Shown here piece by piece: positions 5,591-21,664 of a stretch of 34,585 bases of DNA. Under the pieces are notes generated by a model, which worked only from the letters and a program-made list of their open reading frames with translations, did not search any database and was not told the origin of the DNA. Where the stretch lies: contig DATKBC010000116.1 of assembly GCA_035514415.1 (NCBI GenBank), forward strand, positions 1-34,585. The letters run 5' to 3'. The stretch comes from Pleomorphomonadaceae bacterium (GTDB lineage Bacteria > Chloroflexota > Limnocylindria > QHBO01). The stretch's first letter is position 1. Every line of letters starts with the position of its first letter. The position numbers and the translations under genes are program-made.

Positions 5591-5950
5591 ATGGACCAGA
5601 CCGGACTGCTCTATGTCCTGGGATTCGGCTTCGCCGCGACCACGTTCGTGTTCGGGACGATCCTCTTCTCGTGGTTGATCACCCATCGGCGCAAGCAGGC
5701 GCAGAAGGGGCTGCCCTACGAGTGCGGGATCGACACCATCGGAGACACCTGGTCCCGGTTCGGACTGGCGTTCTACCTGTACGCCCTGCTGTTCGTGGCG
5801 TTCGACGTGGAGATCATCTTCATCTACCTCTGGGCGATCGTGATTCGCGACATCACGCTCACCGGCATGATCCTGATGGGCATCTTCCTGGTGGTCCTGA
5901 TGTACGGCGAGTTCTACGCCTGGAAGAAGGGTGACCTGAAATGGCGATAA
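5591..5950 (+). CDS. nuoA: NADH-quinone oxidoreductase subunit A
   Basis: The protein is 119 aa with 3 TM segments. Characteristic blocks are GLPYECGID and [20 protein letters not shown]. Confidence 0.9.
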
Positions 5951-6570
5951 CAACCCCTCCCAAGGCCGACGAGCCGATCGTCATCCCCGATGCCGCCGGC
6001 GACGACCCGCTGCTGTCCGAGTTCGGGATGGAAGCCCACCCCCAGGGCGGGTTCCATGGCCTGCTGGAGGTCATCCCCACCCGGGCCGACTACATCCTGG
6101 ACCTCATCCGGGCCAACTCGCTGTGGCCGCTCCTGTCCGGGCTGTCGTGCTGCGCCATCGAGATGATGAGCACCGCCACCAGTGTCAACGACGTGGACCG
6201 ATTCGGGATGTTCCCCTTCCGCGCCTCACCCCGCCAGGCCGACGTCCTGATCGTGGCCGGCACGCTGACCACCAAGATGGCTGGGCCGCTGGTCCGGCTG
6301 TGGGCCCAGATGCCTGAGCCCAAGTGGTGCGTGGCCATGGGCACCTGCACGACCAGCGGCGGACGCTTCAAGCGCTCCTACAGCGTTGTCCAGGGCGTGG
6401 ATCGGGTCATGCCGGTTGACGTCTACGTGCCGGGTTGCCCGCCAAGACCCGAGGGCCTGATCTACGGGTTGATGAAGCTCCAGGAGCTGGTCAAGCAGCG
6501 TCGCGGCCAGTGGGCCACCTACGCCGACCGGGGGCCGGACCTGCACTCCTGGGAAGGAGACGTGCGCTGA
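5941..6570 (+). CDS. nuoB: NADH-quinone oxidoreductase subunit B (cluster N2)
   Basis: Motifs are [35 protein letters not shown] and VPGCPPRPE. Confidence 0.92.
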
Positions 6571-7145
6571 GCGCACCCGCCGCGGCGGGCCCGCTGGTCC
6601 GGCTGCTGAGCGACCGGCTCGCCGACGCGGCGAGCGACCTGTGGACCGACGAGGACACGGTGGAGATCCAGGTTCCCCGCGACAAGATCGTCGAGTCGCT
6701 CCGCACCCTGCGCGATGACGCGGACTTCGGCTTCTTCTTCCTGGCCGATGCGGCCGCGGTCGACTACGGGGTCGGCAACTGGTTCGAGGTTGTCTACCAC
6801 CTGTACTCGGACCGCCACCCCACCTGGCTGCGGGTCCGGGTCAAGGTCGACCGCGAGAATCCCGTGACGCCCACCATCACCTCCCTGTGGGAGGGGGCGA
6901 TGTTCCACGAGCGCGAGATGTACGACATGATGGGCATCGTCTTCGAGGGCAACCGCGACCTGCGGCGGATCTACATGTCGCCCGACTACCGGTCCTTCCC
7001 GCAGCGCAAGGATTTCCTGCTCCCCGATGACGCCGCCGATTCCGCGGCGGCAGGCAACCGCCCGCTGGAGCGGCCCGAAACGTGGGACCTGAGCAAGCTG
7101 GAGGACGCGGCCGCGCACCGCGACGAGCCGGGAGGCCCGGTGTGA
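6567..7145 (+). CDS. nuoC: NADH-quinone oxidoreductase subunit C (start uncertain)
   Basis: Motifs are [40 protein letters not shown] and RKDF. The start is ambiguous. CTG 6567 lies 6 nt after the SD GGAAGGAGA and overlaps the nuoB stop. GTG 6510 and TTG 6435 would overlap nuoB by 61 or 136 nt. There is a C-terminal hydrophilic tail of about 40 aa. Confidence 0.8.
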
Positions 7146-8416
7146 CGACCACCAAATCCCGTCCGGCGCCGGAACAGCCCGGCGAGGAGCCGCGCGTCCC
7201 GGACCCCATTGCCCTGGACGCCATGGCCACCACCGCGCCGCGCCAGGAGTTCTTTGGCTTCGACATCGTCCCGCCGCCGGACCGGCCCCCGCAGACCGAG
7301 CGCGAGATGGAGGTCTACACCCTGGGCGACGGGGAGATGCTCGTCAACATGGGCCCCCAGCACCCGTCCACCCACGGCGTGATGCGCCTGGTGCTCAAGG
7401 TCCGTGGCGAGGTGGTCATCGACATCGACCCCGTGCTCGGCTATCTGCATCGCGGGATCGAAAAGCTGTGCGAAGAGGCGACCTACACCACGGTCCTGAC
7501 CTACGTCGACCCCATGGACTACATGTCGGCCATGCACAACGAGCACGCGCCGGCCATCGCGTTCGAGAGGCTGTACGGGATCCAGGCCCCGCGCCGGGCG
7601 GAGTACATCCGGGCCCTGGTGGTGGAGCTGAACCGGGTGTTCAGCCACGGGCTGATGATGGGCTTCCTGGCGCTCGACATCGGCGGCCTGACCCCCATCC
7701 TGTACGGCTTCATCAACCGCGACGAAGTGGTGGAGATGCTGGCCGCCATCTCCGGTCAGCGGATGCTGTTCAACTTCTTCCGGGTGGGCGGGGTGAATTT
7801 CGACACCAACGACGAGTTCATGTCGCGCCTGGGTCGCTGGCGAGCCAACGTCCTGGACAACATCGAGATGAACGAGAAGATCCTGACCGAGAACGAGATC
7901 TTCCGGGCTCGGACCAGGGGCATGGGCACCCTGACCGGGAAGCAGGCCATCGATCTGGGCGTCAGCGGCCCCAACCTGCGGGCCAGTGGCGTGCCGTTCG
8001 ACGTCCGCAAGGCCCACCCGTACTGCATCTACAACGAGCTTGAGTTCGACGTCATCACCCAGACTGAGGGCGACACCTACGCCCGCTACATGCAGCGCAT
8101 CGCGGAGCTGAAGCAGTCCATCCACCTCATCGACCAGATCGTGGACAAGATGCCCCACGGCCCGGTCCAGGCCCAGGTGCCGGGGATCATCCGCCCTCGC
8201 CCGGGACGGGCCTACGCGGCCATCGAGTCGCCACGTGGGCTGTACAGCGTGTACGCCATCAGTGACGGCGGCCCCAACCCGTATCGGTTCCGGATGCGCG
8301 ACCCCAGCTTCATCAGCCTCCAGGTCATGCCCAAGCTCATGCCCGGGCACCTCATCGCCGACACCATGGCGATCATGGCCAGCCTGGATCCGATCATGGG
8401 CGGCGTGGACAAGTAG
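7142..8416 (+). CDS. nuoD: NADH-quinone oxidoreductase subunit D
   Basis: Motifs are NMGPQHPSTHGVMRL, GYLHRGIEK and ESPRGLYSVY. GTG 7142 overlaps the nuoC stop (GTGTGA). An alternative start is ATG 7223. Confidence 0.9.
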   Translation: MTTTKSRPAPEQPGEEPRVPDPIALDAMATTAPRQEFFGFDIVPPPDRPPQTEREMEVYTLGDGEMLVNMGPQHPSTHGVMRLVLKVRGEVVIDIDPVLGYLHRGIEKLCEEATYTTVLTYVDPMDYMSAMHNEHAPAIAFERLYGIQAPRRAEYIRALVVELNRVFSHGLMMGFLALDIGGLTPILYGFINRDEVVEMLAAISGQRMLFNFFRVGGVNFDTNDEFMSRLGRWRANVLDNIEMNEKILTENEIFRARTRGMGTLTGKQAIDLGVSGPNLRASGVPFDVRKAHPYCIYNELEFDVITQTEGDTYARYMQRIAELKQSIHLIDQIVDKMPHGPVQAQVPGIIRPRPGRAYAAIESPRGLYSVYAISDGGPNPYRFRMRDPSFISLQVMPKLMPGHLIADTMAIMASLDPIMGGVDK

Positions 8417-8425
8417 GCGGCCGAG

Positions 8426-9445
8426 ATGGATCCGGCGACCATCGAGAGTCTGCTCGGCGTCGGCCGTTTCGTGCTGGCCACCACCCTATTGCTGCTGCTG
8501 ACCGTGCCGACCGCGTTTATCGTGGGCCAGCTGGAGCTGAAGATCATCGCCCTCATGCAGCTCCGCTATGGCCCCAACCGGGTCGGCCCGCGCGGGATGT
8601 TCCAGAGTGCGATCCACGGCTTCAAGATCCTGGCCAAGGAGGACCAGACGCCGGATCGAGCCGACGTGCCGGTATTCACCCTGGCGCCGTGGATGGTGTT
8701 CATGGCGGCCGCCATGAGCATGCTGGTCATCCCGTTCGCCCCCGGGTTGGTGGCCTTCGACTCCGACATCGGCGTCATCTTCTTCTTCGCCATCATCGGT
8801 CTGTCAGTGGTCGGGATGCTGGTCGCCGGCTGGGCGAGCTACAACAAGTACGCGCTGCTGGGCGGGCTGCGGAGCGCGGCCCAAATGGTCAGTTACGAGA
8901 TCCCGTTGACCCTGTCCATCGTAGGGGTCGTGGTCCTGACCGGGACGTTGTCGTTCACCCACATCGTCGAATGGCAGCTGGAGCACGGCTGGGCGGTCAT
9001 CTGGCAGCTGGTCGGCTTCCCGATCTTCTTCATCGCCGCGGCCGCGGAGATCAACCGGACCCCGTTCGACATGGTGGAGGCCGATTCGGAGATCGTGGCC
9101 GGCCCGTTCACCGAGTACTCGGGGATGCGATTCGGCTTCTTCTATTTTGCAGAGTACGTCGCACTTTTCATCATGTGCGGCATCCTGGTGACCCTTTTCT
9201 TCGGCGGGTGGCTGGCGCCGTGGCCGTTCCCGGCCCAGCTGGACGGCTTCGCCGGCACCGTGTACGGCCTGTTCTGGTTCTTCCTGAAGACGTACTTCTT
9301 CGTCTTCGTCGCCGTGTGGGTACGGGCTACCCTGCCCCGCGTGCGAGTCGATCAGCTGAGGGGCATGGCCTGGAAGGCGCTCCTACCGCTGGCGCTGATC
9401 AACTTGTTCGTGACCGCCGCGGTGGTCCTGATCTTCAAGCTGTGA
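8426..9445 (+). CDS. nuoH: NADH-quinone oxidoreductase subunit H
   Basis: It is a polytopic membrane protein. Motifs are RYGPNRVGPRGMFQSAIHGFKILAKED, FAEINRTPFDMVEADSEIVAGPFTEYSG and FFFAEY. Confidence 0.92.
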   Translation: MDPATIESLLGVGRFVLATTLLLLLTVPTAFIVGQLELKIIALMQLRYGPNRVGPRGMFQSAIHGFKILAKEDQTPDRADVPVFTLAPWMVFMAAAMSMLVIPFAPGLVAFDSDIGVIFFFAIIGLSVVGMLVAGWASYNKYALLGGLRSAAQMVSYEIPLTLSIVGVVVLTGTLSFTHIVEWQLEHGWAVIWQLVGFPIFFIAAAAEINRTPFDMVEADSEIVAGPFTEYSGMRFGFFYFAEYVALFIMCGILVTLFFGGWLAPWPFPAQLDGFAGTVYGLFWFFLKTYFFVFVAVWVRATLPRVRVDQLRGMAWKALLPLALINLFVTAAVVLIFKL

Positions 9446-9454
9446 CGAGCTGAC

Positions 9455-10303
9455 ATGGCGATCCCCGGCTCCGGCCTGCTCACCGGCATGGGTGTCACGC
9501 TGCGCAACCTCTTCCGCCCCAAGGTGACGCAGCAGTACCCCGAGGTGCGCCCCGCCATGGCCGAGCGCTGGCGAGGGCGGCTGGACCTCATCTACGACCC
9601 GTTCGGCGAGCACAAATGCGAGGTCTGCTTCCAGTGCGCCATGGTGTGCCCGGTGGAAGCCATCGACATGAGCGGCTTCGACTCGCAGGGCAACAAGATC
9701 CGATACGGGCTGCCCGAGATCTATGACGAGCGTCGCGATCCGAACGCCTTCCGGCGGGCCGGCCTTCCATCCAGACCGATGCGCAACGCGGCGCGATGGG
9801 AGGAAGCGGTCGACACCGCCTGGGTGGACCAGGTCATCGATGGGTTCGGCGGACGCCCCGAATCGCTGGTCGCCATCTTCGGCGCGGTCCAGACCCGATA
9901 CGGGTACCTGCCCGAGCCGGCGCTGCGCCGGATCAGCGACCGGATGACGATCCACTGGGCCCAGGTCTTCGGGGCGGCGGGGCTGGGCGGCTTCCGGCTG
10001 CTGCCCACCGAGGGGCACCTGGTGACCGTGTGCGACTGCGCGGCGTGCCGCTTCGCCGGCGGCGACAAGCTCCTGACAGCTCTGGAGGAGGAACTGGGCA
10101 TCGGGGCCGGTGAGACGACCGATGACGGCGCGTTCACCCTGGAGACCGATGCGAGCGTGGGAGCGGGGGCGATTGCGCCGGCGGTGCGGATCGACACCCT
10201 GGTCTACGGGCCACTCAACGTGGACGAGGCGCGCCACCTGATCTACGCCCGGCGGGCGGAAAAAACCCGCGCCAGGAAGGCCGGCGCCGAGGCGCGCGCC
10301 TGA
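9455..10303 (+). CDS. Fusion protein: N-terminal half of NuoI (one 4Fe-4S Cys motif) joined to a NuoE-like thioredoxin-fold domain with incomplete Cys ligands
   Basis: Residues 1-95 are NuoI-like: GVTLRNLFRPKVTQQYPE, RGRL, then C55-x2-C58-x2-C61-x3-C65-P and VEAIDM. No second Cys motif follows. Residues ~120-265 are NuoE-like: RYGYLPEPALRRIS, VTVC193DC195AAC198RFAGG, LGIGAGETTDDGAFTLE and APAVRID. Confidence 0.75.
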   Translation: MAIPGSGLLTGMGVTLRNLFRPKVTQQYPEVRPAMAERWRGRLDLIYDPFGEHKCEVCFQCAMVCPVEAIDMSGFDSQGNKIRYGLPEIYDERRDPNAFRRAGLPSRPMRNAARWEEAVDTAWVDQVIDGFGGRPESLVAIFGAVQTRYGYLPEPALRRISDRMTIHWAQVFGAAGLGGFRLLPTEGHLVTVCDCAACRFAGGDKLLTALEEELGIGAGETTDDGAFTLETDASVGAGAIAPAVRIDTLVYGPLNVDEARHLIYARRAEKTRARKAGAEARA

Positions 10304-11649
10304 TGGCGGCCGGCCTCTCCCCGCAGATCCGGATCCTCCCCGGCGGGGAGCAGCGCCTGCTGGCCGGGATCGGGAAGCTGGACGCCGAGTCGCTGGCTGC
10401 GTACCGCAAGGCCCATGGCTACCGCGGCCTGACGCGCGCCATCACCAAGCTCTCCCCGGACCAGGTCATCACCGAGATCTTTGCGTCCCGCCTCCGCGGC
10501 CGAGGCGGCGCCGGGTTCCCGGTGGCCGACAAGTGGCGCGCCAGCCGTTCCGCGCCCGGCGAGCGGAAGATCGCGATCGCCAACCTGATGGGCGCCGACC
10601 CGACCTCGCTGGGTGACCGCGCGCTGGCCGAGGGCAACCCGCACCTCGTCCTGGAGGGGCTCATCATCGCGGCCGCCGCGGTGGGCGCCTCCGAGGCCAT
10701 CCTGGCCGTGCGCCGCGACTGGATCGCGGCCATCGAGCGCCTCCGCAAGGCGGTGGCGGATGCCGAGGCCGCGCACCTGGCGGGCTACCTGATCCAGGGC
10801 ACCGACGTGTCGGTCCAGGTGTCGGTGTGGGAAGGCTCCGGCGCCTACGTGGCGGGGGAGGAAACCGCCCTCATCCACGCCCTCCAGGGCGACCGCGGCA
10901 TGCCGCTCATCCGACCGCCGTACCCCGCCGCGCGCGGGCTGTGGGGCGTCCCGACCCTGGTCCACAACGGCGAGACCCTGGCCCACGTGGCCTGGATCCT
11001 GGGCCACTCGGCAGCCGATTTCGCCAAGGTCGGGCCGGAGGAGTCGCCCGGCACCAAGCTGGTCACCATCGCCGGGGCGGTGCGCAACCCAGGCCTGGCG
11101 GAGGTGGCCATGGGCACTTCGGTCGCCGATATCGTCAAGCTGGCCGGCGGGTCGACCGGGACGGTGAAGGCCGCGTTCGTGGGCGGGCCGGGAGCGGGCG
11201 CGCTGGCAGCTGCCGAGCTGTCCTCCACGGGCTACGAATATGGCGCCCTGGGCGCCGCCGGCGCCCATATCGGTTCCGGATCGGTCCTGGTCACCGACGC
11301 CGCCACCTGCATGGTGGCCACGGCCCGCTTCCTGCTGGACTACTCCGCGCGCGAGGCGTGCGGAAAGGCTGTCCCGTGCCGGATCGGCCCGTTGCGCCTG
11401 GTGGAGACCCTGGACCGCATCCTGGCCGCCACGCCGCGTCCCAACGACCTGATCCTTCTGCGCGAGCTGTCGGCCAAGATCGCGGACACGGCCCTGTGCC
11501 GCCTCGAGTCGCTTGCCCCCAGGCCCATGCTCACGACCCTGGACCGCTTCGCGGACGAGTACCGCGCCCACGCCGAGCGGGGGGTCTGCCTGGCCGGCTC
11601 ATGCAAGACGGACCCGGTCGCCCCGCTGCTCGCGCCGCTGGCGTCATAG
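10303..11649 (+). CDS. nuoF: NuoF-like (51 kDa-type) flavoprotein subunit, divergent
   Basis: Motifs are RLRGRGGAGFP, GSGAYVAGEETAL, RPPYPAARGLWGVPTLVHNGET, SPGTKLVTIAG and C353-GK-A356-VP-C359...C399. The ATG overlaps the upstream TGA (TGATG). Confidence 0.75.
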   Translation: MAAGLSPQIRILPGGEQRLLAGIGKLDAESLAAYRKAHGYRGLTRAITKLSPDQVITEIFASRLRGRGGAGFPVADKWRASRSAPGERKIAIANLMGADPTSLGDRALAEGNPHLVLEGLIIAAAAVGASEAILAVRRDWIAAIERLRKAVADAEAAHLAGYLIQGTDVSVQVSVWEGSGAYVAGEETALIHALQGDRGMPLIRPPYPAARGLWGVPTLVHNGETLAHVAWILGHSAADFAKVGPEESPGTKLVTIAGAVRNPGLAEVAMGTSVADIVKLAGGSTGTVKAAFVGGPGAGALAAAELSSTGYEYGALGAAGAHIGSGSVLVTDAATCMVATARFLLDYSAREACGKAVPCRIGPLRLVETLDRILAATPRPNDLILLRELSAKIADTALCRLESLAPRPMLTTLDRFADEYRAHAERGVCLAGSCKTDPVAPLLAPLAS

Positions 11650-11659
11650 GATTGGACCG

Positions 11660-14059
11660 ATGACCTTCGCTGGCGGCAACGGCAACGGGAAGGGCAACGG
11701 CTCCGGCAACGGGGGCATGATCGGGGCGTTCGAGGACTACGCCCCCATCTGGCCGGTGGTCCCCGGCACGCGCAAGATCACGGTCACGATCAACGGCCGC
11801 CAGGTGCAGGCCGAGGAAGGGCAGACCATTCTCCAGGCCTGCCGCGTGCTGGGGCTCGAGATCCCGACCCTGTGCTACGAGCCCAAGCTGTCCCCGTACG
11901 GGGCCTGCCGGATCTGCGTGGTCGAGGTGGAGGGCCAGGACAACACGCCCATCTCGTGTGGCACCCAGATCACCGAAGGGATGGTCATCACCACCCACTC
12001 GGAGCGGGTCATCGAGAACCGCCGCCTGGTGCTGGAGCTGATCTTCTCCGACCACGACGCGTACTGCCTGCCGCCCCGCCAGTTCAAGTGCCCCACCCGG
12101 GTCGACATCCCCGGCTACCTGAAGGCCAACTCGGAGGGCAACTGGGAAGAGGCGACCCGCATCCTGAAGCGGTCACTCCCCTTCCCGGCAATCCTGGGCC
12201 GGGTGTGTCCCGCGCCGTGCGAGACCCACTGCCGGCGCGAGGAAGTGGACACCGCCATCGCCATCCGCGACTCGCATCGGTACTGCGCCGACCGCGTGCT
12301 GGAAGTGGACGCGCCGGCCCCGCTGCCGTGGCCGAAGGAGTCGGACACCGGTCGCCGGGTGGCGATCGTGGGTTCAGGGCCGGCCGGCATGACGGTGGCC
12401 TACTACCTCCAGCTGCGCGGGCATCACTGCGACGTGTTCGAGGCCGATCCCGAGCAGGGCGGCATGCTTCGCTACGGGATCCCCGAGTACCGACTGCCCA
12501 AGGGCTGGATGGACCGCGAGTTGAACCACGTGTGGGAGCTGGGCGCGACCTTCAAGCCGAACATGCGCCTGGGCCGCGACTTCCACCTGGCCGATCTGCT
12601 GGACCAGGGCTACGACGCCGTCTTCGTGGGCACAGGCTGCTACAAGTCGAACGAGATGGGGATCCCCAACGAGTTCGCCGACGGGACCGTCAACGCGCTG
12701 GAGAACCTGTACAACAGCACGCGCGGGGTCCTGGTGCCACGCCTCAAGGGCGCGCGGGTGGTCGTGATCGGCGGCGGGTTCACGGCCATCGACTGCACCC
12801 GGACCTCCCTCCGCCAGGGCGCGAAGTCGGTGACGATCGTCTACCGCCGGGACCTGAAGGACATGCCGTCCCAGGACGAGGTCCACGAGGCCATCGAAGA
12901 GGGGGCCACCGTCATCTTCCAGGCCGCGCCGGTCCGGGTGGTGACCGATGCAAAGGGTCAGGTGACCGGAGTCGAGTTCCAGAAGATGCACCTGGGCGAG
13001 CCCGATGAGAAGGGCCGGCGACGGCCGGAACCCATGCCCGGCACCGAGTTCATCGTCGAGTGCGACACGGTCCTGGGGGCCATCGGCCAGGGACCGGAGC
13101 TAGGGTGGATCGACTCCGAGCCGGAGGAGATCCGCTCCGGGCTGGAGGTCAGCCGCCAGGGGCGCCTGGTGGCCGATGCGAACACATTCCGCACCGGCGT
13201 TCCTCAAGTGTTTGCCGCCGGCGATGTGAACCTTGGCGCAACCACCGTGGTGGAGGCCATCGGCGACGGGCGACGCGCCTCCTATGCGATGGATTACTGG
13301 CTCCGTGGCCACGACCTGGACGACCCGCAGGTGCGACGCATCGTGTCCGAGCCGCAGCCCTCGTTCCTGACCATCGTGCCCTTCACCGACGACGTGAAGG
13401 AGCCCCAGGCGGTGATGGGCAAGCTGGGCGCTGAGGAACGCCGCACGAACTTCGAGGAGTACGAGCACGGCTATACCCACGACCAGGCCATGGGCGAGGC
13501 CGCCCGCTGCCTCCAGTGCACGTGCGAGGCGATTGGCCACTGCGACCTGCGCGAGGCGGCCATCGAGTACGAGACCACCCTGAACATGACGATCGACGAG
13601 CGGTCGATCCAGGACAACCCGTATGTCGGCATCAACCACGGCTACGGCCGGGACGAAACCCACTCGTTCATCCTGCGCGACTACTCGCGCTGCATTGACT
13701 GTGGCCGATGCGCCCAGGTGTGCAAGGACATCGTGGGCGCCGGGTGCTACGACTTCATCGGCAAGGGCTTCGACTCGCTGGTCACCACGGCCGACTACGT
13801 TTCGCTTAACGAGACGCCATGCGTGTCATGCGGGCGCTGCGCGGAGACCTGCCCGGTCGGAGCGCTCATGCCGCGACCACGCATCCTGGAGACCTACCAG
13901 CTCGACGTGAGCCGCTGCATCTTCTGCGGCATCTGCGCCGACGCGTGCCCTTATGACGCTCTGCGCTGCGGCCCGGAGTTCGAGTTCAGCGAGTACCAGC
14001 GCGACCTTCCCATGCTCGACATCCTCGAGATGTCCGACCGGGAGCGCCCCACCCGCTAG
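11660..14059 (+). CDS. Multi-domain Fe-S flavoprotein: 2Fe-2S and NuoG/hydrogenase-type N-terminal Fe-S domain, interrupted by a GltD-like FAD/NAD(P)H domain and ending in the C-terminal half of NuoI
   Basis: The start is ATG 11660, 11 nt after the nuoF-like stop. The ORF-track start at 11513 overlaps nuoF by 137 nt. The N-terminus is a GNG-rich tail. The 2Fe-2S motif is C72-x10-C83-x2-C86-x13-C100, followed by H132-x3-C136. GltD-like blocks are CPTRVDIPGYL, GRVCPAPCETHC, VAIVGSGPAG, VVIGGGFTAIDC, IVYRR and FAAGDV. Then come C617LQCTCEAIGHC628, RCIDCGRCAQVC and CVSCGRCAETCPVGAL. The last ~60 aa are YQLDVSRCIFCGICADACPYDALRCGPEFEFSEYQRDL, a NuoI C-terminal signature. Confidence 0.75.
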   Translation: MTFAGGNGNGKGNGSGNGGMIGAFEDYAPIWPVVPGTRKITVTINGRQVQAEEGQTILQACRVLGLEIPTLCYEPKLSPYGACRICVVEVEGQDNTPISCGTQITEGMVITTHSERVIENRRLVLELIFSDHDAYCLPPRQFKCPTRVDIPGYLKANSEGNWEEATRILKRSLPFPAILGRVCPAPCETHCRREEVDTAIAIRDSHRYCADRVLEVDAPAPLPWPKESDTGRRVAIVGSGPAGMTVAYYLQLRGHHCDVFEADPEQGGMLRYGIPEYRLPKGWMDRELNHVWELGATFKPNMRLGRDFHLADLLDQGYDAVFVGTGCYKSNEMGIPNEFADGTVNALENLYNSTRGVLVPRLKGARVVVIGGGFTAIDCTRTSLRQGAKSVTIVYRRDLKDMPSQDEVHEAIEEGATVIFQAAPVRVVTDAKGQVTGVEFQKMHLGEPDEKGRRRPEPMPGTEFIVECDTVLGAIGQGPELGWIDSEPEEIRSGLEVSRQGRLVADANTFRTGVPQVFAAGDVNLGATTVVEAIGDGRRASYAMDYWLRGHDLDDPQVRRIVSEPQPSFLTIVPFTDDVKEPQAVMGKLGAEERRTNFEEYEHGYTHDQAMGEAARCLQCTCEAIGHCDLREAAIEYETTLNMTIDERSIQDNPYVGINHGYGRDETHSFILRDYSRCIDCGRCAQVCKDIVGAGCYDFIGKGFDSLVTTADYVSLNETPCVSCGRCAETCPVGALMPRPRILETYQLDVSRCIFCGICADACPYDALRCGPEFEFSEYQRDLPMLDILEMSDRERPTR

Positions 14060-14290
14060 CCGATCAGCTCGTCGCGAGCGGGCGTGATCCGATTCGAAGC
14101 ATCCGAAGGATCGCGTAACTGGCCCGGGGCCGGATGCGCGGGCTGCAGCGTCAGGAGGAGCCCGCCAGCCACCCAAACGCCGAGCACCAGCCCTGCCGCC
14201 AGACGAACGATCACCCGCCCAGTCTGTTAGGAGGTGCCCGTACGTGCCTCGCGGCGGGCGGGGCACCCCAGCGGGTATCCTCGCCCCTCT

Positions 14291-14695
14291 ATGACGGATC
14301 TCCCCCAGCAGCCGATCGAGATGATCCTGCTCCGGCAGCTTTCGGAGCACCTGTCCATCCCGATGTGGGTCATCGACGCGGAGGGCGATCTCGTCTTCTT
14401 CAACGAGGCGGCCGAGCCCACCCTCGGCGTACGGGCCGACGACGTCGACCAAATGCCGTTCGAGACCTGGACCACCTCCTTCCGCCCTCGGGACGAGTCG
14501 GGCAATCCGCTGGCGGCGGAGGAGCTGCCCCCGGTCATCGCCCTGCGTCGGGGAGAACCGGCGCATGCCACGCTCGAGATCACCGGTGGGGACGGGGTCG
14601 CACGCCGGATCGGCGTCACGGCCTTTCCGCTGACCGGCGGGCACGGCAACATCATGGGCTCGGTGACCATGTTCTGGGAGTCCCCCGAGGCGTGA
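14291..14695 (+). CDS. Stand-alone PAS-domain sensor protein
   Basis: The protein is 134 aa. IPMWVIDAEGDLVFFNEAAEPTLG...RRIGVTAFPL...GSVTMFWE has the PAS beta-sheet pattern. I chose ATG 14291 because the GTG 14234 extension has no SD and an Arg/Pro-rich composition. Confidence 0.6.
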   Translation: MTDLPQQPIEMILLRQLSEHLSIPMWVIDAEGDLVFFNEAAEPTLGVRADDVDQMPFETWTTSFRPRDESGNPLAAEELPPVIALRRGEPAHATLEITGGDGVARRIGVTAFPLTGGHGNIMGSVTMFWESPEA

Positions 14696-15601: not shown

Positions 15602-16111
15602 CTGGACATCTCGACCGTCCTCTTCGTGGTGCTCGCCGCCGGCGTCCTCGGCGGCGGCCTGGCGGCCGTCCTGCTGCGGAACGTGATCCATTCCGCGGTG
15701 GCCATGATGGTCTCCTTCGGAGCCCTGGCTGGCACCTACGCGCTGCTGGGCGCGCCCATCGTGGCCGCTGCCCAGGTCCTCATCTACCTGGGCGCGATCA
15801 GCGTCCTGATCATTTTCGCGATCATGCTGACCCAGGCCGGAGACGCGAACCTGCCGGCGCCATTCCAGCGCCAGGCGCCGGTCGCAGCCCTGGTCGCCAT
15901 CGGGATCGTGGCCCTCGTCGGATGGGCCTTGCTCCAGACCGACTGGCCCAACCCCAGCGTGATCATCCCGGTCGAGCTCGACGACCTGGCAGCCGCCGTC
16001 TTCACCGACTACGCGCTGCCGTTCGAGATCGTGGGCTTCCTGTTGCTGGCGGCCATCATCGGCGCCATCTACCTCGCCCGCCGGCCCGAAGAAGACGAGC
16101 GGATGAACTGA
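15602..16111 (+). CDS. nuoJ: NADH-quinone oxidoreductase subunit J (start uncertain: CTG 15602 or GTG 15626)
   Basis: Motifs are LRNVIHSAVAMM and AAQVLIYLGAISVLIIFAIMLT. The SD GGGGAG (15588-15593) lies 8 nt before CTG 15602, and there is no SD before GTG 15626. Confidence 0.85.
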   Translation: MDISTVLFVVLAAGVLGGGLAAVLLRNVIHSAVAMMVSFGALAGTYALLGAPIVAAAQVLIYLGAISVLIIFAIMLTQAGDANLPAPFQRQAPVAALVAIGIVALVGWALLQTDWPNPSVIIPVELDDLAAAVFTDYALPFEIVGFLLLAAIIGAIYLARRPEEDERMN

Positions 16112-16114
16112 CCG

Positions 16115-16423
16115 ATGGGCCTCGACGGCTACCTGTTCCTGTCGCTCGGCCTGTTCGGGATAGGAGCCTTCGGCTTCCTGGCCCGGCGCAACGCGATCAT
16201 GATGCTGATCTGCATCGAGCTCATGCTGAACGCGGTCAACCTGGCCCTGGTGGCCTTCAACGCGTTCGACTACTACGCCACCGATGACGCCGGCGCCGTC
16301 TTCTCGCTGCTCGTCATGGCCGTCGCGGCAGCCGAGGCGACGGTGGGCCTGGCCCTCGTCATCGCGATCATCCGCACCCGTCAGACCGCCGAGGTCGACG
16401 ACTACGCCGATCTGAAGGAGTAG
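16115..16423 (+). CDS. nuoK: NADH-quinone oxidoreductase subunit K
   Basis: The protein is 102 aa with 3 TM segments. Motifs are LARRNAIMMLICIELMLNAVNLALVAF and AAAEATVGLALV. Confidence 0.9.
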   Translation: MGLDGYLFLSLGLFGIGAFGFLARRNAIMMLICIELMLNAVNLALVAFNAFDYYATDDAGAVFSLLVMAVAAAEATVGLALVIAIIRTRQTAEVDDYADLKE

Positions 16424-16427
16424 CGCG

Positions 16428-18677
16428 CTGGACCTGCAGTCGCTCGTCGCCCTCATCCCGGCCCTGCCGCTGGCCGGCTTCCTGTTCGCGGTGCTGGTTG
16501 GGCCGCGCTTCGACCGGATTCCGAAGCACGCCGAGCACGGTGAGGAGCACGGTGCGGAGCACGGTGCGGGGGCAGGGCACGACACGGGCGGCGACGCACA
16601 TGACCCCCACGACGCGCCCGTCGACGAGTCCGGGTTCCGCAGCGTCCCGACCGAGGAGGAGCAGCGCGAAACCTCGCCCCACCGGGGCCACGCCGACGAC
16701 CTGGCCAACGCCAACGGGGCCGACGGAATCATCCCCGACGAGCTGAACGACGGGCGCGGGCAGCCCGGCCATGTGACGCCCGGCGGGTCGCGGCCGGTCT
16801 ACCGCTCGTGGTGGGTCCCGGTGGCTCTGGTGGCCGCGGCCTGGGCCGCTTCGATGGCCATCTTCGCGTCGGTCATCTTCCAGGGGGCGGAGTACCACGT
16901 CACGGTCTACGACTGGATCGTGTCGGGCGATTTCCGGATCGAGATCTCGTTCTTCGTGGACGCGCTGACCGCGGTCCTCCTGCTGGTGGTCAGCACGGTC
17001 GGCCTGCTGGTCCACGTCTATTCGATCGGTTACATGGACGGCGACCGCAGCGTGTGGCGCTTCTTCGCCTACCTGAACCTGTTCATGTTCAGCATGCTGC
17101 TGCTGATCCTGGCCGACAACTTCCTGCTCCTGTACGTGGGCTGGGAGGCAGTCGGCCTGTGCTCGTACCTCCTCATCGGCTATTGGTACAAGAAGCCGTC
17201 GGCGGCGGGCGCAGCCAAGAAGGCGTTCATCGTCAACCGGGTCGGCGACTTTGGCTTTGGGCTGGGCGTGATCCTGATCTGGACCCTGCTCGGCACGCTG
17301 ACCTTCGAGGGCGTCTTCGCCGGCATCGGCGGGCTCGAGGGCTGGCAGATCACCCTCATCGCCCTGCTTCTGTTCGCGGGTGCGGTGGGCAAGAGCGCCC
17401 AGTTCCCGCTCCACGTCTGGCTGCCCGATGCCATGGAGGGCCCCACCCCGGTCAGCGCCCTCATCCACGCCGCGACCATGGTCAACGCCGGCGTCTACCT
17501 CGTGGCGCGCGCCAACCCGATCTTCGCCGAGGCGCCGACCGCCATGTGGGTCGTCGCCATCATCGGCGCCTTCACCGCCATCTTCGCCGCCGCCATCGCG
17601 CTGACCCAGAACGACATCAAGAAGGTGCTCGCCTACTCGACCGTCAGCCAGCTGGCGTACATGTTCTTCGGGCTGGGGATCGGGGCCTGGGCGGCGGCCA
17701 TCTTCCACCTGCTGACCCACGGGTTCTTCAAGGGTCTCCTGTTCATGGCCTCGGGATCGGTCATCCATGGGGCCGGCGGGGAGCAGGACATGCGCTTCAT
17801 GGGCGGCCTCCGGGAACGCATGCGCTGGACGTACGGGACCATGGTCGTGGGCGCCCTGGCGTTGGCCGGGATCCCGATCTTCGCGGGGTTCTTCAGCAAG
17901 GACGAGATCCTGTCGGAGGCCTTCGCCCGTGGCTACCCGATCTACTGGGCGGTGGGCATCGGGGTTGCGTTCCTGACTGCGTTCTACACGTTCCGCATGA
18001 TCTTCATGACCTTCCACGGCTCGTGGCGCGGGCCAGCGGCCGCCTGGAAGCACGTCCACGAGAGCGCACCGACCATCGTGGCGCCGCTGGTCATCCTGGC
18101 CGTGCCCACCGCGCTGGCCGGGCTGCTGCTTGGCATCCCGCCTGAGGGCGGCACCATCCACCTGTGGCTGGAGGAGGTCTTCGCCGGTGCCGAGGGGCTC
18201 GGCGCCGGCATCCAGCCCGGATCCATCCTGGCCGAGGCCAGGGAGCATGGGGAGGCGCACGGCTTCGAGCTGCTCGGCCTGGGCGGGCTGCTGCTGCTGG
18301 CCGGGGCGTCGGTCGGCCTGGCCGGGATCCTGCTCGCCCGGCGCTGGTACGTCCAGGATCCCGAGGCGCCGGCGCGCTTCGTGCAGCGCATCCCATTCGG
18401 GCTGGGGCCGGGCATGTATCGGGCCAGCCTGAACAAGTACTACTTCGACGACCTGTACCAGCTCGTCTTCTCCCGCGGCGGCGTGGTGCTCTCCAACGCC
18501 CTGTGGTGGTTCGACGTGAAGGTCATCGACGGGGCTGTCAACGGCGTCGGCTGGCTGGCCCAGCGCCTGGGCGGCGGGTTGCGCCGGTCCCAGACCGGTC
18601 GGGTCCAGAACTACGGGTTGGGGATCGCGGCCGGGTTGGTCATCGTGCTGCTGGTCTACGCCACGGTGGTGCGCTGA
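16428..18677 (+). CDS. nuoL: NADH-quinone oxidoreductase subunit L with a ~100-aa His/acidic-rich insertion after TM1; probable CTG start
   Basis: Motifs are WEAVGLCSYLLIGYWY and HVWLPDAMEGPTPVSALIHAATMVNAGVYL. The conserved TM1 (LVALIPALPLAGFLFAVLVG) lies upstream of the first ATG/GTG/TTG at 16491. The frame opens at 16416. CTG 16428 sits 7 nt after the SD GAAGGAG. Confidence 0.85.
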   Translation: MDLQSLVALIPALPLAGFLFAVLVGPRFDRIPKHAEHGEEHGAEHGAGAGHDTGGDAHDPHDAPVDESGFRSVPTEEEQRETSPHRGHADDLANANGADGIIPDELNDGRGQPGHVTPGGSRPVYRSWWVPVALVAAAWAASMAIFASVIFQGAEYHVTVYDWIVSGDFRIEISFFVDALTAVLLLVVSTVGLLVHVYSIGYMDGDRSVWRFFAYLNLFMFSMLLLILADNFLLLYVGWEAVGLCSYLLIGYWYKKPSAAGAAKKAFIVNRVGDFGFGLGVILIWTLLGTLTFEGVFAGIGGLEGWQITLIALLLFAGAVGKSAQFPLHVWLPDAMEGPTPVSALIHAATMVNAGVYLVARANPIFAEAPTAMWVVAIIGAFTAIFAAAIALTQNDIKKVLAYSTVSQLAYMFFGLGIGAWAAAIFHLLTHGFFKGLLFMASGSVIHGAGGEQDMRFMGGLRERMRWTYGTMVVGALALAGIPIFAGFFSKDEILSEAFARGYPIYWAVGIGVAFLTAFYTFRMIFMTFHGSWRGPAAAWKHVHESAPTIVAPLVILAVPTALAGLLLGIPPEGGTIHLWLEEVFAGAEGLGAGIQPGSILAEAREHGEAHGFELLGLGGLLLLAGASVGLAGILLARRWYVQDPEAPARFVQRIPFGLGPGMYRASLNKYYFDDLYQLVFSRGGVVLSNALWWFDVKVIDGAVNGVGWLAQRLGGGLRRSQTGRVQNYGLGIAAGLVIVLLVYATVVR
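16533..16568 (+). repeat. 3 x 12-nt tandem repeat inside nuoL encoding (EHGE/A)3
   Basis: The three units are gagcacggtgag, gagcacggtgcg and gagcacggtgcg. Units 2 and 3 are identical, and unit 1 differs from them at one position. Confidence 0.9.
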
Positions 18678-18678
18678 C

Positions 18679-20205
18679 ATGAGCGGCCTGCCGGTGCTGT
18701 CGCTGATCGTCTTCACGCCGCTGCTGGGCGTGGCGGCCCTGCTGTTCGTGCCGGGCGCCAACCATCGGCTCATTCGCTGGGTGGCCCTGCTGGCGGCCAT
18801 GGGAAGCCTGGGCTTCAGCCTGTTCCTGGTGGGCTACGACCCGGCTGGAGCGGAGTTCCAGTTCCGCGAGGACCTTTCGTGGATCAGCGCGTTCGGGATC
18901 CGCTACCAGCTGGGCGTGGACGGCATGAGCGGGGTGCTGGTGCTGCTCACCACGGTCCTGAGCGTGGTCAGCATCCTGTACTCCTGGGGGCCGATCCAGA
19001 TGCGGGTCAGGGAGTACTACGCCGCCATGCTGCTCCTGATGGCCGGCATGCTCGGCGTGTTCGTGGCGCTCGACCTGTTCGTGTTCTACGTCTTCTGGGA
19101 GCTGAGCCTGATCCCGATGTACCTGGTGATCGGGATCTGGGGCGGTCCACAGCGCATCTACGCCACGGTGAAGTTCGTCATCTACACCCTGGTCGGCTCG
19201 CTCCTCATGCTGGTCGCCATCCTGGCCGTGGTCATCGCCCATGCCAACCTCCCGGGCGGGACGTTCACGTTCAGCTACGAAGCCCTGCGCGGCGCCCCGT
19301 TCCCCCACCTGCTCCAGGCCGGCGCGTTCATCGCGTTCGGGCTGGCATTTGCCATCAAGGTGCCGATGTGGCCCTTCCACACCTGGCTGCCCGATGCTCA
19401 CGTGGAGGCCCCGACCGCGGGCTCCATCATCCTGGCCGGGGTCCTGCTCAAGCTGGGGGGCTACGGGTTCCTGCGCTTCAGCCTGCCGCTGCTGCCCGAT
19501 GCGGCCCAGTCCTTCGCGCCGCTCATGATCGGCCTGTCCCTGATCGCCATCATCTACGGCGCGCTGGTGGCCATGGTCCAGCCCGATCTGAAGAAACTGA
19601 TCGCCTACTCGAGCGTCTCGCACATGGGGTTCGTGATGCTGGGCGCGTTCGTCTTCAACACCCAGGGCCTGCAGGGCGCCATCTTCCAGATGGTCAGCCA
19701 CGGGATCACGACCGGGGCCCTGTTCCTCCTGGTGGGAGTCATCTACGAACGCACCCACGACCGGCTGATCAGCCACATGGGCGGGCTCAACGCCCGCATG
19801 CCGGCCTACGCGGCGATGTTCGGGCTGTTCACCTTCGCCAGCATCGGCTTACCGGGGCTGTCGGGGTTCGTGGGCGAGTTCCTGGTCATGCTCGGCGCGT
19901 TCCAGTACTCCCCGTGGGTGGCAGCCTGGGCCATGCTGGTGGTGATCGCCAGCGCGGTCTACATGCTCTGGATGTTCCAGCGCGCGTTTTTCGCGGTCCC
20001 CTCGGACTGGATGCGGCGGGCCTGGGGCGGGTTGCGTGACCTGACCCGCGTCGAATGGCTGTCGCTGGCCCCGCTGGTGTTCCTGGTCGTGGCCCTGGGC
20101 GTCTACCCGGCCCCCGTCCTGGAGGCCACCGCGGGGCCGGTGCAGCGCATCCTCGAGGCGGTTCAGAGCGCTGCGGGGCTCAACCTGATCGCATGGCCAT
20201 GGTGA
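18679..20205 (+). CDS. nuoM: NADH-quinone oxidoreductase subunit M
   Basis: Motifs are FVFYVFWELSLIPMYLVIGIWGG, HTWLPDAHVEAPTAGSIILAGVLLKLGGYG and AYSSVSHMG. Confidence 0.92.
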   Translation: MSGLPVLSLIVFTPLLGVAALLFVPGANHRLIRWVALLAAMGSLGFSLFLVGYDPAGAEFQFREDLSWISAFGIRYQLGVDGMSGVLVLLTTVLSVVSILYSWGPIQMRVREYYAAMLLLMAGMLGVFVALDLFVFYVFWELSLIPMYLVIGIWGGPQRIYATVKFVIYTLVGSLLMLVAILAVVIAHANLPGGTFTFSYEALRGAPFPHLLQAGAFIAFGLAFAIKVPMWPFHTWLPDAHVEAPTAGSIILAGVLLKLGGYGFLRFSLPLLPDAAQSFAPLMIGLSLIAIIYGALVAMVQPDLKKLIAYSSVSHMGFVMLGAFVFNTQGLQGAIFQMVSHGITTGALFLLVGVIYERTHDRLISHMGGLNARMPAYAAMFGLFTFASIGLPGLSGFVGEFLVMLGAFQYSPWVAAWAMLVVIASAVYMLWMFQRAFFAVPSDWMRRAWGGLRDLTRVEWLSLAPLVFLVVALGVYPAPVLEATAGPVQRILEAVQSAAGLNLIAWPW

Positions 20206-20212
20206 GAACGGC

Positions 20213-21664
20213 ATGAACGACCCCGCCGCCCTGTACGCGCTGCTTCCCGAGGCGGTCCTGGCCATCTCGATCCTGGTGATCATCACCGTCGACCTTTTCC
20301 TGGCGCGGGAGCGCAAGTGGCTGCTGACCCCGCTCACCGTGGCTGGCCTGGCGGCCACCGCGCTGGCCATCGCCGCGGTCTGGAACACCCCGCCCGGCGG
20401 GGCGTTGGCGGGAGGGGTCTACACCGTCGACCGGCTGTCCCTGGTGCTCAAGCTGACGGCGGTCGGTATCGGTCTGTTGACCACCATGTTCGCGCCGGGC
20501 TACCTGGTCGTCAGGCGCCTGCCGCTGGGCGAGTTCAACGCCATCCTGCTGTTCTCCACCCTGGGCATCTTCGTCCTGGCCAGCAGCGCCGATCTCATCA
20601 CCCTGTTCCTGGGCCTCGAGCTGATGGTCATGCCGGCCTACCTGCTGACCGCTTTCCACAAGACGGATCGGTTCAGCAACGAGGGCGGGCTGAAGTACTT
20701 CCTCCTCGGATCGTTCGCGAGCGCCATCCTCCTGTTTGGGATCGCCTGGACCTACGGCCTGACCGGCTCGACCGTGTTCAGCGAGATCGCCGAGGTGTTC
20801 TCGGACGGGTTGATGAACGGGGCAGTGCTGGTGGCGATCGGCTTCCTGACCGTGGGCGCGACCTTCAAGGCGGCCGCGGTGCCGTTCCACTTCTGGACCC
20901 CGGACGCCTACCAGGGCGCCCCGACGCCGATCACCGGGTTCCTGTCGGTAGGCCCCAAACTGGGCGCCTTTGCCCTGCTGCTGCGCCTGTTCAGCGAGGC
21001 GCTCGGACCCCTGCGCGCCGACTGGCTGGACGTGTTCGTGGTCTTGGCGGTGGTGACCATGACCTTCGGCAACGTGGTGGCCCTGACCCAGACCAACGTG
21101 AAGCGGATGCTGGCCTATTCGTCGATCGCCCACACCGGCTACATCCTGGCCGGGCTGTCGGCGTTCGCGGCAGCCAGAGATCCACAGGTTGCCACCCAGG
21201 CCATCGAGGCGGTCGTGTTCTACCTGGTCGGCTACTCGGTGATGAACATCGCGGCCTTTGCCGTGGTCGGCATGTTGCAGCGTGACGTGCGCCGGTACGG
21301 TGGGTTGGGCTCGTTCGCCGGCCTCGCCGGGCGCCAGCCGGCGCTGGCCGCGGCCATGACTGTCCTGCTCCTGTCGCTGACCGGTATCCCGCCCACGGTC
21401 GGGTTCTTCGCCAAGCTGTACGTCCTGCTGGCGTCGGTCGACGCGGGCCTGGCCTGGCTGGCAGTGGCCATCGCACTGAATGCCGCCCTGGCCGCGTTCT
21501 ACTACCTGCGGGTCGTCGTGTACATGTACATGCGTGACCCGGAGGCCGAGCCGGCGGAGGTGGAGCGCTCCGGCGTAGGTCGCCTGGCGCTGGGCCTCAG
21601 CGTGGCCGGCGTGCTCCTGCTCGGCATCTTCCCAGGCATCCTGCTGGGGTGGCTGCCGGCTTGA
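20213..21664 (+). CDS. nuoN: NADH-quinone oxidoreductase subunit N
   Basis: Motifs are LGLELMVMPAYLL, PFHFWTPDAYQGAPTPITGF and AYSSIAHTGYIL. Confidence 0.92.
   Translation: MNDPAALYALLPEAVLAISILVIITVDLFLARERKWLLTPLTVAGLAATALAIAAVWNTPPGGALAGGVYTVDRLSLVLKLTAVGIGLLTTMFAPGYLVVRRLPLGEFNAILLFSTLGIFVLASSADLITLFLGLELMVMPAYLLTAFHKTDRFSNEGGLKYFLLGSFASAILLFGIAWTYGLTGSTVFSEIAEVFSDGLMNGAVLVAIGFLTVGATFKAAAVPFHFWTPDAYQGAPTPITGFLSVGPKLGAFALLLRLFSEALGPLRADWLDVFVVLAVVTMTFGNVVALTQTNVKRMLAYSSIAHTGYILAGLSAFAAARDPQVATQAIEAVVFYLVGYSVMNIAAFAVVGMLQRDVRRYGGLGSFAGLAGRQPALAAAMTVLLLSLTGIPPTVGFFAKLYVLLASVDAGLAWLAVAIALNAALAAFYYLRVVVYMYMRDPEAEPAEVERSGVGRLALGLSVAGVLLLGIFPGILLGWLPA

Follow-up and report, generated by a model that had tools for sequence, protein, structure and literature searches.

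The protein P0001 (799 amino acids) is encoded on contig DATKBC010000116.1, a stretch of 34,585 nucleotides from a Limnocylindria bacterium (Chloroflexota) that was analysed over its whole length and is called the window below. Its sequence argues for P0001 as the subunit through which electrons enter a variant form of respiratory complex I. P0001 would descend from the NfnA/StnC proteins and pass electrons from reduced nicotinamide adenine dinucleotide phosphate (NADPH; NADH without the phosphate) to quinone, through a NuoI subunit split between two polypeptides. We put the probability of this reading at roughly 0.6; under it, the soil bacteria that carry the gene probably supply NADPH to their proton pump. 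The ATG at 11660 is backed as the start codon by homologues, which share the N-terminus MTF... From there, the chain runs through a [2Fe-2S] domain, the motif H132-x3-C136, a GltD/NfnB-type module of ~480 amino acids for flavin adenine dinucleotide (FAD) and NAD(P)H with two 4Fe-4S sites, the segment C617..C628, and three CxxCxxCxxxC motifs. Its features are as follows.

11660..14059 (+): P0001, the whole open reading frame, NfnA/StnC-like FAD/NADPH iron-sulfur subunit with a fused NuoI C-terminal half; best solved relatives 9bov_A, 8oh5_C and 9n5u_A.
11771..12001 (+): [2Fe-2S] domain, residues 38-114, with Cys72, 83, 86 and 100; Pfam Fer2_4, E 1e-21; equivalent to cluster A1 of NfnA and N1b of NuoG.
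12053..12067 (+): H132-x3-C136, first half of a His-ligated 4Fe-4S site (A3 of NfnA, N5-type), aligned to StnC H96/C100.
12074..12304 (+): Fer4_20 region with two GltD/NfnB-type 4Fe-4S sites (A6 and A7); Pfam Fer4_20 at residues 139-215, E 3e-19; holds C144, R181, C183, C187 and C191.
12356..13270 (+): FAD and NAD(P)H dinucleotide folds, residues 233-537; Pfam Pyr_redox_2, E 2e-26; motifs GSGPAG, GGGFTAID, VYRR and AAGDV.
13508..13543 (+): return segment C617-x2-C620-x-C622-x5-C628.
13670..13867 (+): NuoG/hydrogenase-type ferredoxin-like domain with the motifs starting at C678 and C721 (A2 and A4 of NfnA); Pfam Fer4_Nqo3 at residues 671-736; aligns with 9bov_A CILCGLCIRVC and CISCGQCADICP.
13880..14056 (+): NuoI C-terminal half, C753-x2-C756-x2-C759-x3-C763-P followed by the NuoI-type tail PEFEFSEYQRDL; TIGR01971 positions 71-112 of 121; M. 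smegmatis NuoI residues 84-127.

A preliminary description of this DNA had quoted the motifs CPTRVDIPGYL, GRVCPAPCETHC, VGSGPAG, IGGGFTAIDC, IVYRR, FAAGDV and C617-x2-C620-x-C622-x5-C628, and all of them were found where it had put them; the block it had singled out, 12053-13543, runs exactly from the codon of H132 through that of C628. Judging from the spacing of the return segment, two of its cysteines would belong to A6 and the other two, C622 and C628, would complete the His-ligated A3 site. Pfam NADH-G_4Fe-4S_3 was matched over just positions 1-17 of 40, at residues 121-137, and the Fer4_Nqo3 and Fer4 diclusters together span residues 671-769. The ferredoxin motifs announced after the return segment are present, except that there are three of them and not two (C678, C721 and C753), the last being of the NuoI type. 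The absence of the molybdopterin-binding body of NuoG was also seen correctly: the chain stops at residue 799, and no molybdopterin domain of Pfam matched P0001.

The same description had read P0001 as a NuoG-type iron-sulfur domain into which a GltD-type domain was inserted. The interleaving itself is there; the protein is not a NuoG with an acquired insert, as its domain order is known from NfnA/StnC, which oxidises NADPH in the Nfn-Bfu/Stn transhydrogenases of solved structure. In phmmer searches, residues 38-763 matched NfnA of Caldicellulosiruptor saccharolyticus NfnABC (9bov_A) with an E value of 8.5e-168, and StnC of Sporomusa ovata StnABC (8oh5_C) was matched at 9e-146; the value for NfnA of Thermococcus sibiricus (9n5u_A) was 1.6e-138. 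Foldseek, queried with the AlphaFold model, placed these three structures on top (36-38% identity over about 725 residues, 38% to NfnA), followed by NfnB, NfnI-L, GltD and DPD. The alignment of residues 38-763 with solved NfnA and StnC lies far above what chance would give, and homology to these NADPH-oxidising proteins upholds the view that FAD and NAD(P)H have a genuine site in the GltD-like module.

In the NfnA/StnC structures, NADPH gives up its electrons to the FAD, from which they follow A7-A6-A3-A2-A1-B1 to the flavin mononucleotide (FMN) of the B subunit, and A4 and A5 form a dead-end branch off A2, toward an inactive formate-dehydrogenase-like (Fdh-like) domain (PMC11829005, PMC10482914). 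P0001 shares with these proteins (PDB 9BOV/9BP5, 8OH5/8OH9 and 9N5U; PMC11829005, PMC10482914, PMC12018979) the interleaved domain order with every ligand conserved (residue 140 of the window copy is discussed below), and its neighbours are likewise nearest to NfnB/StnB and NfnC/StnA. Clusters A1, A3, A6, A7, A2 and A4 are kept. Arg181 occupies the position of the StnC ligand Lys170, at which a K170R variant retained about half of the activity (PMC10482914). The alignments to 9bov_A and 8oh5_C end near residue 700 of 1172-1178: where NfnA/StnC continue into an inactive Fdh/NuoG-like C-terminal domain of ~450 amino acids holding A5, P0001 has a CxxCxxCxxxCP motif and a NuoI-type tail, that is half a NuoI. 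A further difference is that Nfn/Stn enzymes are encoded by three-gene operons of anaerobes, whereas the P0001 genes lie within a nuo operon.

Other family names fitted less well. Against the NuoG model TIGR01973, P0001 scored 101 bits for a cut-off of 470, the N5 motif is split by ~480 residues and the C-terminal body is absent. The database name glutamate synthase small subunit was rejected (NF009454, 550 bits against a cut-off of 916; TIGR01317, 217 against 448; no gltB in the window), as was formate dehydrogenase major subunit, whose family cut-offs were not reached and whose molybdopterin domain is missing.

The half NuoI at the end of P0001 acquires its meaning from the operon, in which the genes are ordered nuoABCDH-[NuoI N-half::NuoE-like]-[NuoF-like]-[P0001::NuoI C-half]-nuoJKLMN. 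Besides P0001, the following features belong to it.

5591..9445 (+): nuoA (5591-5950), nuoB (5941-6570), nuoC (to 7145), nuoD (to 8416) and nuoH (8426-9445).
9455-10303 (+): P0124, 282 amino acids, fusion of a NuoI N-terminal half with a NuoE-like domain.
9455..9733 (+): NuoI N-terminal half, P0124 residues 1-93, with the single motif C55-x2-C58-x2-C61-x3-C65-P; TIGR01971 positions 1-72 of 121; 8e9g_I residues 8-91.
9800..10246 (+): NuoE/NfnC-like thioredoxin-fold domain of P0124; Pfam 2Fe-2S_thioredx, E 5e-25; nearest solved protein NfnC (9bov_C); second cysteine pair of the 2Fe-2S site lost (S234, G238).
10303..11649 (+): NuoF/NfnB-core-like flavoprotein, 448 amino acids, without the end domains of the Bfu type; N3/B1 motif CGKAVPC...C; pocket NLMGADP, HNGET.
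15626..21664 (+): nuoJ, nuoK, nuoL, nuoM and nuoN, the membrane arm; open reading frames, named from the Pfam labels of the same genes in relatives.

The nuoB product has the CC...C...CP cysteines for cluster N2. Canonical nuoEFG genes are absent from the operon, and by motif count and profile the window holds no intact nuoI: the CxxCxxCxxxCP motif occurs just three times in it. The NuoI profile TIGR01971 is instead covered in a complementary manner, over positions 1-72 by P0124 and 71-112 by P0001, and so is M. smegmatis NuoI (residues 8-91 and 84-127 respectively). The ends of P0124 and P0001 are by this comparison the two halves of a split NuoI, so that the chain indeed ends in a NuoI half, as the preliminary description had it. 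Counting motifs leads to the same partner: with three ferredoxin motifs in P0001 and one in P0124, two dicluster domains can be formed only if one of them is completed in trans. Because homology to NfnA pairs C678 with C721 (A2 and A4), C753 is left for the motif of the NuoI N-terminal half. That motif, C55-C65, was invariant in 71 loci.

One might object that the trio is a soluble Nfn/Stn-like enzyme merely co-encoded with an 11-subunit complex I, its NuoI-like ends being ordinary ferredoxin domains and the true nuoI lying elsewhere in the genome. By sequence the three proteins are indeed nearest to NfnABC/StnABC. Yet the two ends complement each other on the NuoI profile down to the N-terminal docking region and the specific C-terminal tail, in all loci of the three clades the cassette occupies exactly the position of nuoI, with nuoH on one side and nuoJ on the other, the odd number of ferredoxin motifs in P0001 calls for a partner motif, and the Fdh-like domain, which in StnC tetramerises and stabilises soluble Stn (PMC10482914), is missing. 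We regard this objection as very improbable.

The split arrangement is not a peculiarity of the window. Relatives of P0001 numbered at least 582 in species-representative genomes, mostly metagenome-assembled genomes (MAGs) of Candidatus Limnocylindria (Chloroflexota), the best one listed being 96% identical. They form three NuoI-fused clades (A, which is the window's, B and C), of which the third, 40-47% identical, comes from MAGs of Thermoleophilia (Actinomycetota); no cultured carrier was found among the Thermoleophilia clusters, all being MAG records. The order nuoD-H-[I_N::E]-F-[C::I_C]-J-K was found in 88 of the 88 loci with enough flanking sequence, Thermoleophilia included. In a quick maximum-likelihood tree (LG+G4 model), to be read with caution, the three clades grouped as one (approximate likelihood ratio support, SH-aLRT, 100) nested among StnC/NfnA-type proteins, which is consistent with a single origin of the NuoI fusion.

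Ligand conservation was followed in about 200 sequences, 80 derived from loci and 120 from Thermoleophilia. The proposed ligand sets (Cys72/83/86/100; His132 with Cys136/622/628; Cys140/191/617/620; Cys144 with Arg181 and Cys183/187; and the three ferredoxin motifs) were invariant, bar rare exceptions (mostly gaps) that concern single loci and fall on positions of the 2Fe-2S and C-terminal motifs. The 2Fe-2S cysteines were kept in 63 of 64 clade A loci, in all clade B and C loci and in 120 of 120 Thermoleophilia proteins, and the FAD GxGxxG and G-D motifs did not vary. The iron-sulfur chain leading from the GltD-like module, which had been proposed from the single window copy, is in this way intact across the family. 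The YRR that follows the second Rossmann strand did not vary in clades A and B (Limnocylindria), and ~110 of the 120 Thermoleophilia sequences have it; it also occurs in NADPH-specific StnC and in NfnA.

At moderate divergence, purifying selection was strongest on P0001. Within clade A, mean identity to the window was ~86% for P0001, 79% for NuoD, 78% for NuoH, 75% for the I_N::E fusion, 72% for NuoJ and 69% for the NuoF-like protein. At a synonymous divergence (dS) of ~0.5, the ratio of non-synonymous to synonymous substitution rates (dN/dS) was 0.08 for P0001, 0.11-0.15 for I_N::E and 0.16-0.24 for the NuoF-like gene; among the seven genes of the operon in this comparison, P0001 was under the tightest constraint, at this dS and beyond. 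The NuoF-like gene was the least constrained among the soluble-arm subunits compared, all of which are under purifying selection.

Two variable ends of the protein were seen in the same alignments. In the window's clade the N-terminus is a low-complexity stretch rich in Gly and Asn (GGNGNGKGNGSGNGG; residues 5-19, window 11672-11716). In the sister clade a C-terminal extension of 60-90 amino acids ends in His/Gly-rich repeats (e.g. GHGDGHAHDGHDHG; alignment columns 836-920), which P0001 does not have.

The partners of P0001 were then compared with the two possible parent families. The NuoF-like protein scored 376 bits against StnB, 372 against NfnB and 258 against T. thermophilus Nqo1, aligning to residues 106-524 of StnB only. 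Because it is nearest to StnB/NfnB, and the NuoE-like domain nearest to NfnC, the whole trio is by sequence of Nfn-Bfu/Stn ancestry and not a modified NuoEFG. Compared with Nfn/Stn, the clade A B-type subunit nevertheless lacks one B1 cysteine as well as the end domains of the bifurcation type, and the C-type subunit lacks its 2Fe-2S ligands. The N3/B1 motif C-G-K-A-V-P-C...C lies at window 11362-11379 (NuoF-like residues 353-359, plus residue 399); its second cysteine is Ala in 59 of 59 clade A sequences and Thr in 10 of 12 of clade B. In clade A the acidic NADE-x-EPG block has become NLMGADP, and NNVET reads (Q/H)N(A/G)ET, while the FMN loop GRGGxG(F/Y)P and GEET are kept. The second cysteine pair of the 2Fe-2S (N1a) site of the NuoE-like domain is replaced in clade A by D/E/N/S and G, and in clade B one of the two late cysteines is left. 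The degeneracy ascribed to the E- and F-like partners thus holds for the window's clade.

In Thermoleophilia it does not: NuoF there is of the full BfuB/HydB type (620-638 amino acids, with N-terminal thioredoxin-like and C-terminal dicluster domains and all four N3 cysteines), and the NuoE domain has all four 2Fe-2S cysteines, a layout seen in the loci L005, L006, L087 and L088, where a complete core of the bifurcation type is combined with split NuoI inside a nuo operon. Bifurcation-type partners are therefore found in these relatives and not in the window, with its 448-amino-acid NuoF-like protein and its NuoE-like domain lacking the second pair. On this sequence comparison, the Bfu-type module is full in Thermoleophilia and by degrees more reduced in clade B and clade A. 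A Cys-x2-(non-Cys)-x2-Cys motif with a remote cysteine is the classical 3Fe-4S pattern, known from succinate dehydrogenase and 7Fe ferredoxins, and the type of cluster N3 may have been altered rather than lost in the window's clade. That the NuoF-like gene is a pseudogene was rejected: the altered motifs are fixed in 59 of 59 clade members, and dN/dS is 0.08-0.32.

Two broken copies were met in other genomes, an in-frame stop in the NuoF-like gene of L002:8557-9924 (TEC*PEE in place of TEWSPEE) and a frameshift within the NuoI_N::NuoE gene of L004:7783-8615. Faulty assembly could explain them, as could a sporadic decay of the E and F parts.

The electron path that we propose begins with the reduction of the P0001 FAD by NADPH, as homology and the YRR motif for the 2'-phosphate suggest. 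Electrons would then run from A7 to A6, to the His-ligated A3 and to A2, steps that have been demonstrated experimentally in the NfnABC and StnABC homologues. From A2 they would enter A4, so that the former dead-end branch of NfnA becomes the exit. The NuoI C-terminal half of P0001 and the N-terminal half on P0124 would rebuild the two-cluster N6a/N6b domain over two chains. Electrons leaving this domain would reach N2 of NuoB and finally quinone, and so power proton pumping. The two partners, NuoF-like and NuoE-like, would dock as they do in Nfn/Stn, with the branch A1-B1-FMN leading to the NuoF-like protein. In the window's clade, where one N3 cysteine, the N1a site and some of the nucleotide pocket are gone, they would act either as a second, altered input site or as a scaffold.

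Several points weigh against this path. AlphaFold2 modelled the dinucleotide-fold part with a predicted local distance difference test score (pLDDT) of 85-98, and the GltD core and the 2Fe-2S domain were confident with inputs of 25 and 110 sequences; for residues 621-799, that is the iron-sulfur tail and the NuoI half, pLDDT stayed below 50 with either input. The motifs could also pair otherwise, C721 with C753 and C678 with the P0124 motif, an arrangement which needs completion in trans as well. The preference for NADPH is read from a motif. The NuoF-like gene is under purifying selection and retains its FMN loop and GEET, so NADH may still be a donor, or even the main one; of the two options in the preliminary description, the GltD-like flavin may have either taken over NAD(P)H oxidation or supplemented it. 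Lastly, the window copy carries a C140R substitution at an invariant cysteine of the cluster chain.

The possible role of NADH leads to a rival scheme, in which NADH oxidised at the NuoF-like FMN is the main donor to quinone, and the GltD-like FAD is a side port exchanging with NADP(H), either transhydrogenase-like or producing NADPH. Apart from the conservation of the NuoF-like protein (dN/dS 0.08-0.32, GRGGxG(F/Y)P and GEET kept), it draws on the precedent of Nfn/Stn, where a single chain links the FAD and FMN sites, and on the Thermoleophilia relatives with their full BfuB-type NuoF and four N3 cysteines. In the window's clade it meets the replacement of the second N3 cysteine by Ala in 59 of 59 sequences, an NADE-x-EPG block that reads NLMGADP, the disappearance of the N1a ligands, and a ranking in which, of the three soluble-module proteins, the NuoF-like one is the least and the GltD-bearing P0001 the most conserved. 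We consider this scheme unlikely, while taking it seriously.

The path might also run backwards, quinol and the proton-motive force reducing NADP+ at the FAD site to supply NADPH for biosynthesis. Complex I and Nfn/Stn are both reversible (PMC10482914 for the latter), and in Mbx-type complexes a GltD-related flavoprotein in NuoI's place reduces NAD(P)+ (PMC4758237). Nothing in the sequence sets the direction, but in the loci examined this is the sole nuo operon seen, with a full membrane arm, which fits a respiratory role, and heterotrophs have cheaper routes to NADPH. Reverse operation appears improbable to us.

The substitution at residue 140 required separate attention.

12077..12079 (+): codon CGC, Arg140 in the window copy; Cys (TGC) in every relative, presumably ligating the middle cluster A6.

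The motif logic makes Cys140 a probable ligand of A6, which lies between the FAD-proximal A7 and A3. Arg140 is not a family feature, as none of the about 200 relatives carries a residue other than Cys there, including the closest genome (L007, 96% identity). In four metagenomic DNA runs and four runs of RNA-Seq libraries (three labelled metatranscriptomic), all contigs covering position 12077 had T; these contigs derive from relatives, not demonstrably from the same strain. Conceivably the NADPH path is impaired in the window genome, Arg140 being a recent loss-of-function allele, or else CGC is an error of the assembly consensus. Its absence from all relatives, the T in every covering contig and the Cys of L007 all speak for this view. 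On the other hand, apart from this codon the gene is intact, and it is strongly constrained (dN/dS 0.07 against L007); the covering runs represent relatives, and clusters with three cysteines can still work. An impaired path is, in our estimate, quite unlikely.

Going further than the proposed NADPH path, one may imagine that a single capture of a three-gene Nfn-Bfu/Stn cassette into the nuoI gene of an 11-subunit enzyme gave rise to a separate class of complex I, which became the respiratory entry of the Limnocylindria and Thermoleophilia, two lineages abundant in soil and freshwater. In the window's clade the NuoE- and NuoF-like proteins would have turned into non-catalytic scaffolds, leaving a quinone reductase that pumps protons, is driven strictly by NADPH, and whose N6a/N6b clusters are ligated across two polypeptides. 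We hold this fuller picture tentatively, and judge its odds to be clearly below even. Both host lineages probably use menaquinone, and one may speculate that the lower-potential NADPH pool provides more driving force; a related argument has been made for Nuo-Bfu (PMC9304861).

Textbooks define complex I as a dehydrogenase of NADH whose input module, NuoEFG, is fixed and whose NuoI is a single chain. Compared with the canonical N-module and NuoI (T. thermophilus 4HEA, E. coli 7AWT, M. smegmatis 8E9G), the window system has homologous folds throughout, the same nuoA, B, C, D, H and J-N and the N2 cysteines, and in both systems electrons have to pass NuoI-type clusters to reach N2. It differs in lacking the molybdopterin-like NuoG body, in having a second flavin site of the GltD type, in its NuoI made of two halves on two fusion proteins, in the position of the input genes (between nuoH and nuoJ, and not between nuoD and nuoH), and in the exit from the NuoG-like part, which is N5 in the canonical enzyme and probably A4 here.

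Nuo-Bfu, a predicted 14-subunit complex I with BfuABC described in Deferribacteres, Proteobacteria, Planctomycetes and Nitrospirae (Schut et al. 2022, PMC9304861), resembles our system in using a Bfu-family module as input to a proton-pumping Nuo complex, and the Thermoleophilia relatives share its full BfuB-type NuoF. In Nuo-Bfu, however, the genes nuoA-N stand in their standard order, NuoI is intact, and BfuA (A1-A5) is of the NuoG type, without GltD/NADPH module; by gene order and split NuoI, the window operon falls outside this group. Mbx-like complexes (Degli Esposti 2015, PMC4758237) also have a GltD-related NAD(P)H flavoprotein at the NuoI position, but they are ferredoxin-oxidising Mrp/Mbx-type complexes of anaerobes without NuoG/E/F-like parts or split NuoI, and NAD(P)+ was proposed as the acceptor, not NADPH as the donor. 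FpoF (F420H2 dehydrogenase) and the ferredoxin-dependent cyanobacterial NDH-1 illustrate equally that an 11-subunit core can be served by varied input modules; there, the input proteins are unrelated and NuoI/FpoI/NdhI is one polypeptide.

The operon context of P0001 appears to be new, the nearest published cases being Nuo-Bfu (2022) and GltD at the NuoI position in mbx-like operons (2015). In a literature search that left out most subscription journals, we found no paper on an NfnA-type subunit fused to half a NuoI in a nuo operon, nor any on the complex I of Limnocylindria. If the NADPH reading is true, this would be a second, independent route by which the 11-subunit core gained a nucleotide-oxidising head, and a natural test case of modular iron-sulfur rewiring, in which the dead-end branch of a soluble enzyme was turned into a productive exit. 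Models of redox balance and energy yield would then change for hundreds of uncultured soil and freshwater species. A warning for annotation also follows, as such proteins are now named 'formate dehydrogenase major subunit', 'glutamate synthase beta-like' or 'FAD-dependent oxidoreductase'.

As to expression, contigs of relatives, 88-99% similar to the window, covered the operon in two rhizosphere metatranscriptomes and one ice metatranscriptome, most densely over P0001, which is also the most conserved gene of the operon. As a sign of transcription in relatives this is weak, contig depth being no gauge of expression and DNA carry-over being possible.

Two further details of the operon were noted. 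Between P0001 and nuoJ, genes for a stand-alone PAS protein and a hydrolase of the metallo-beta-lactamase (MBL) fold lie on the same strand (window 14234-15537). The gap between P0001 and nuoJ ranges from about 0.2 kb to more than 6 kb across clade members, and in L002 it also contains a VanZ-like gene; neither the sister Limnocylindria clade nor Thermoleophilia has this gap. The nuoL open reading frame starts (16491-16800) with a hydrophilic stretch rich in His, Asp and Glu (EHGEEHGAEHGAGAGHD...) ahead of the first conserved helices, which is unusual for NuoL.

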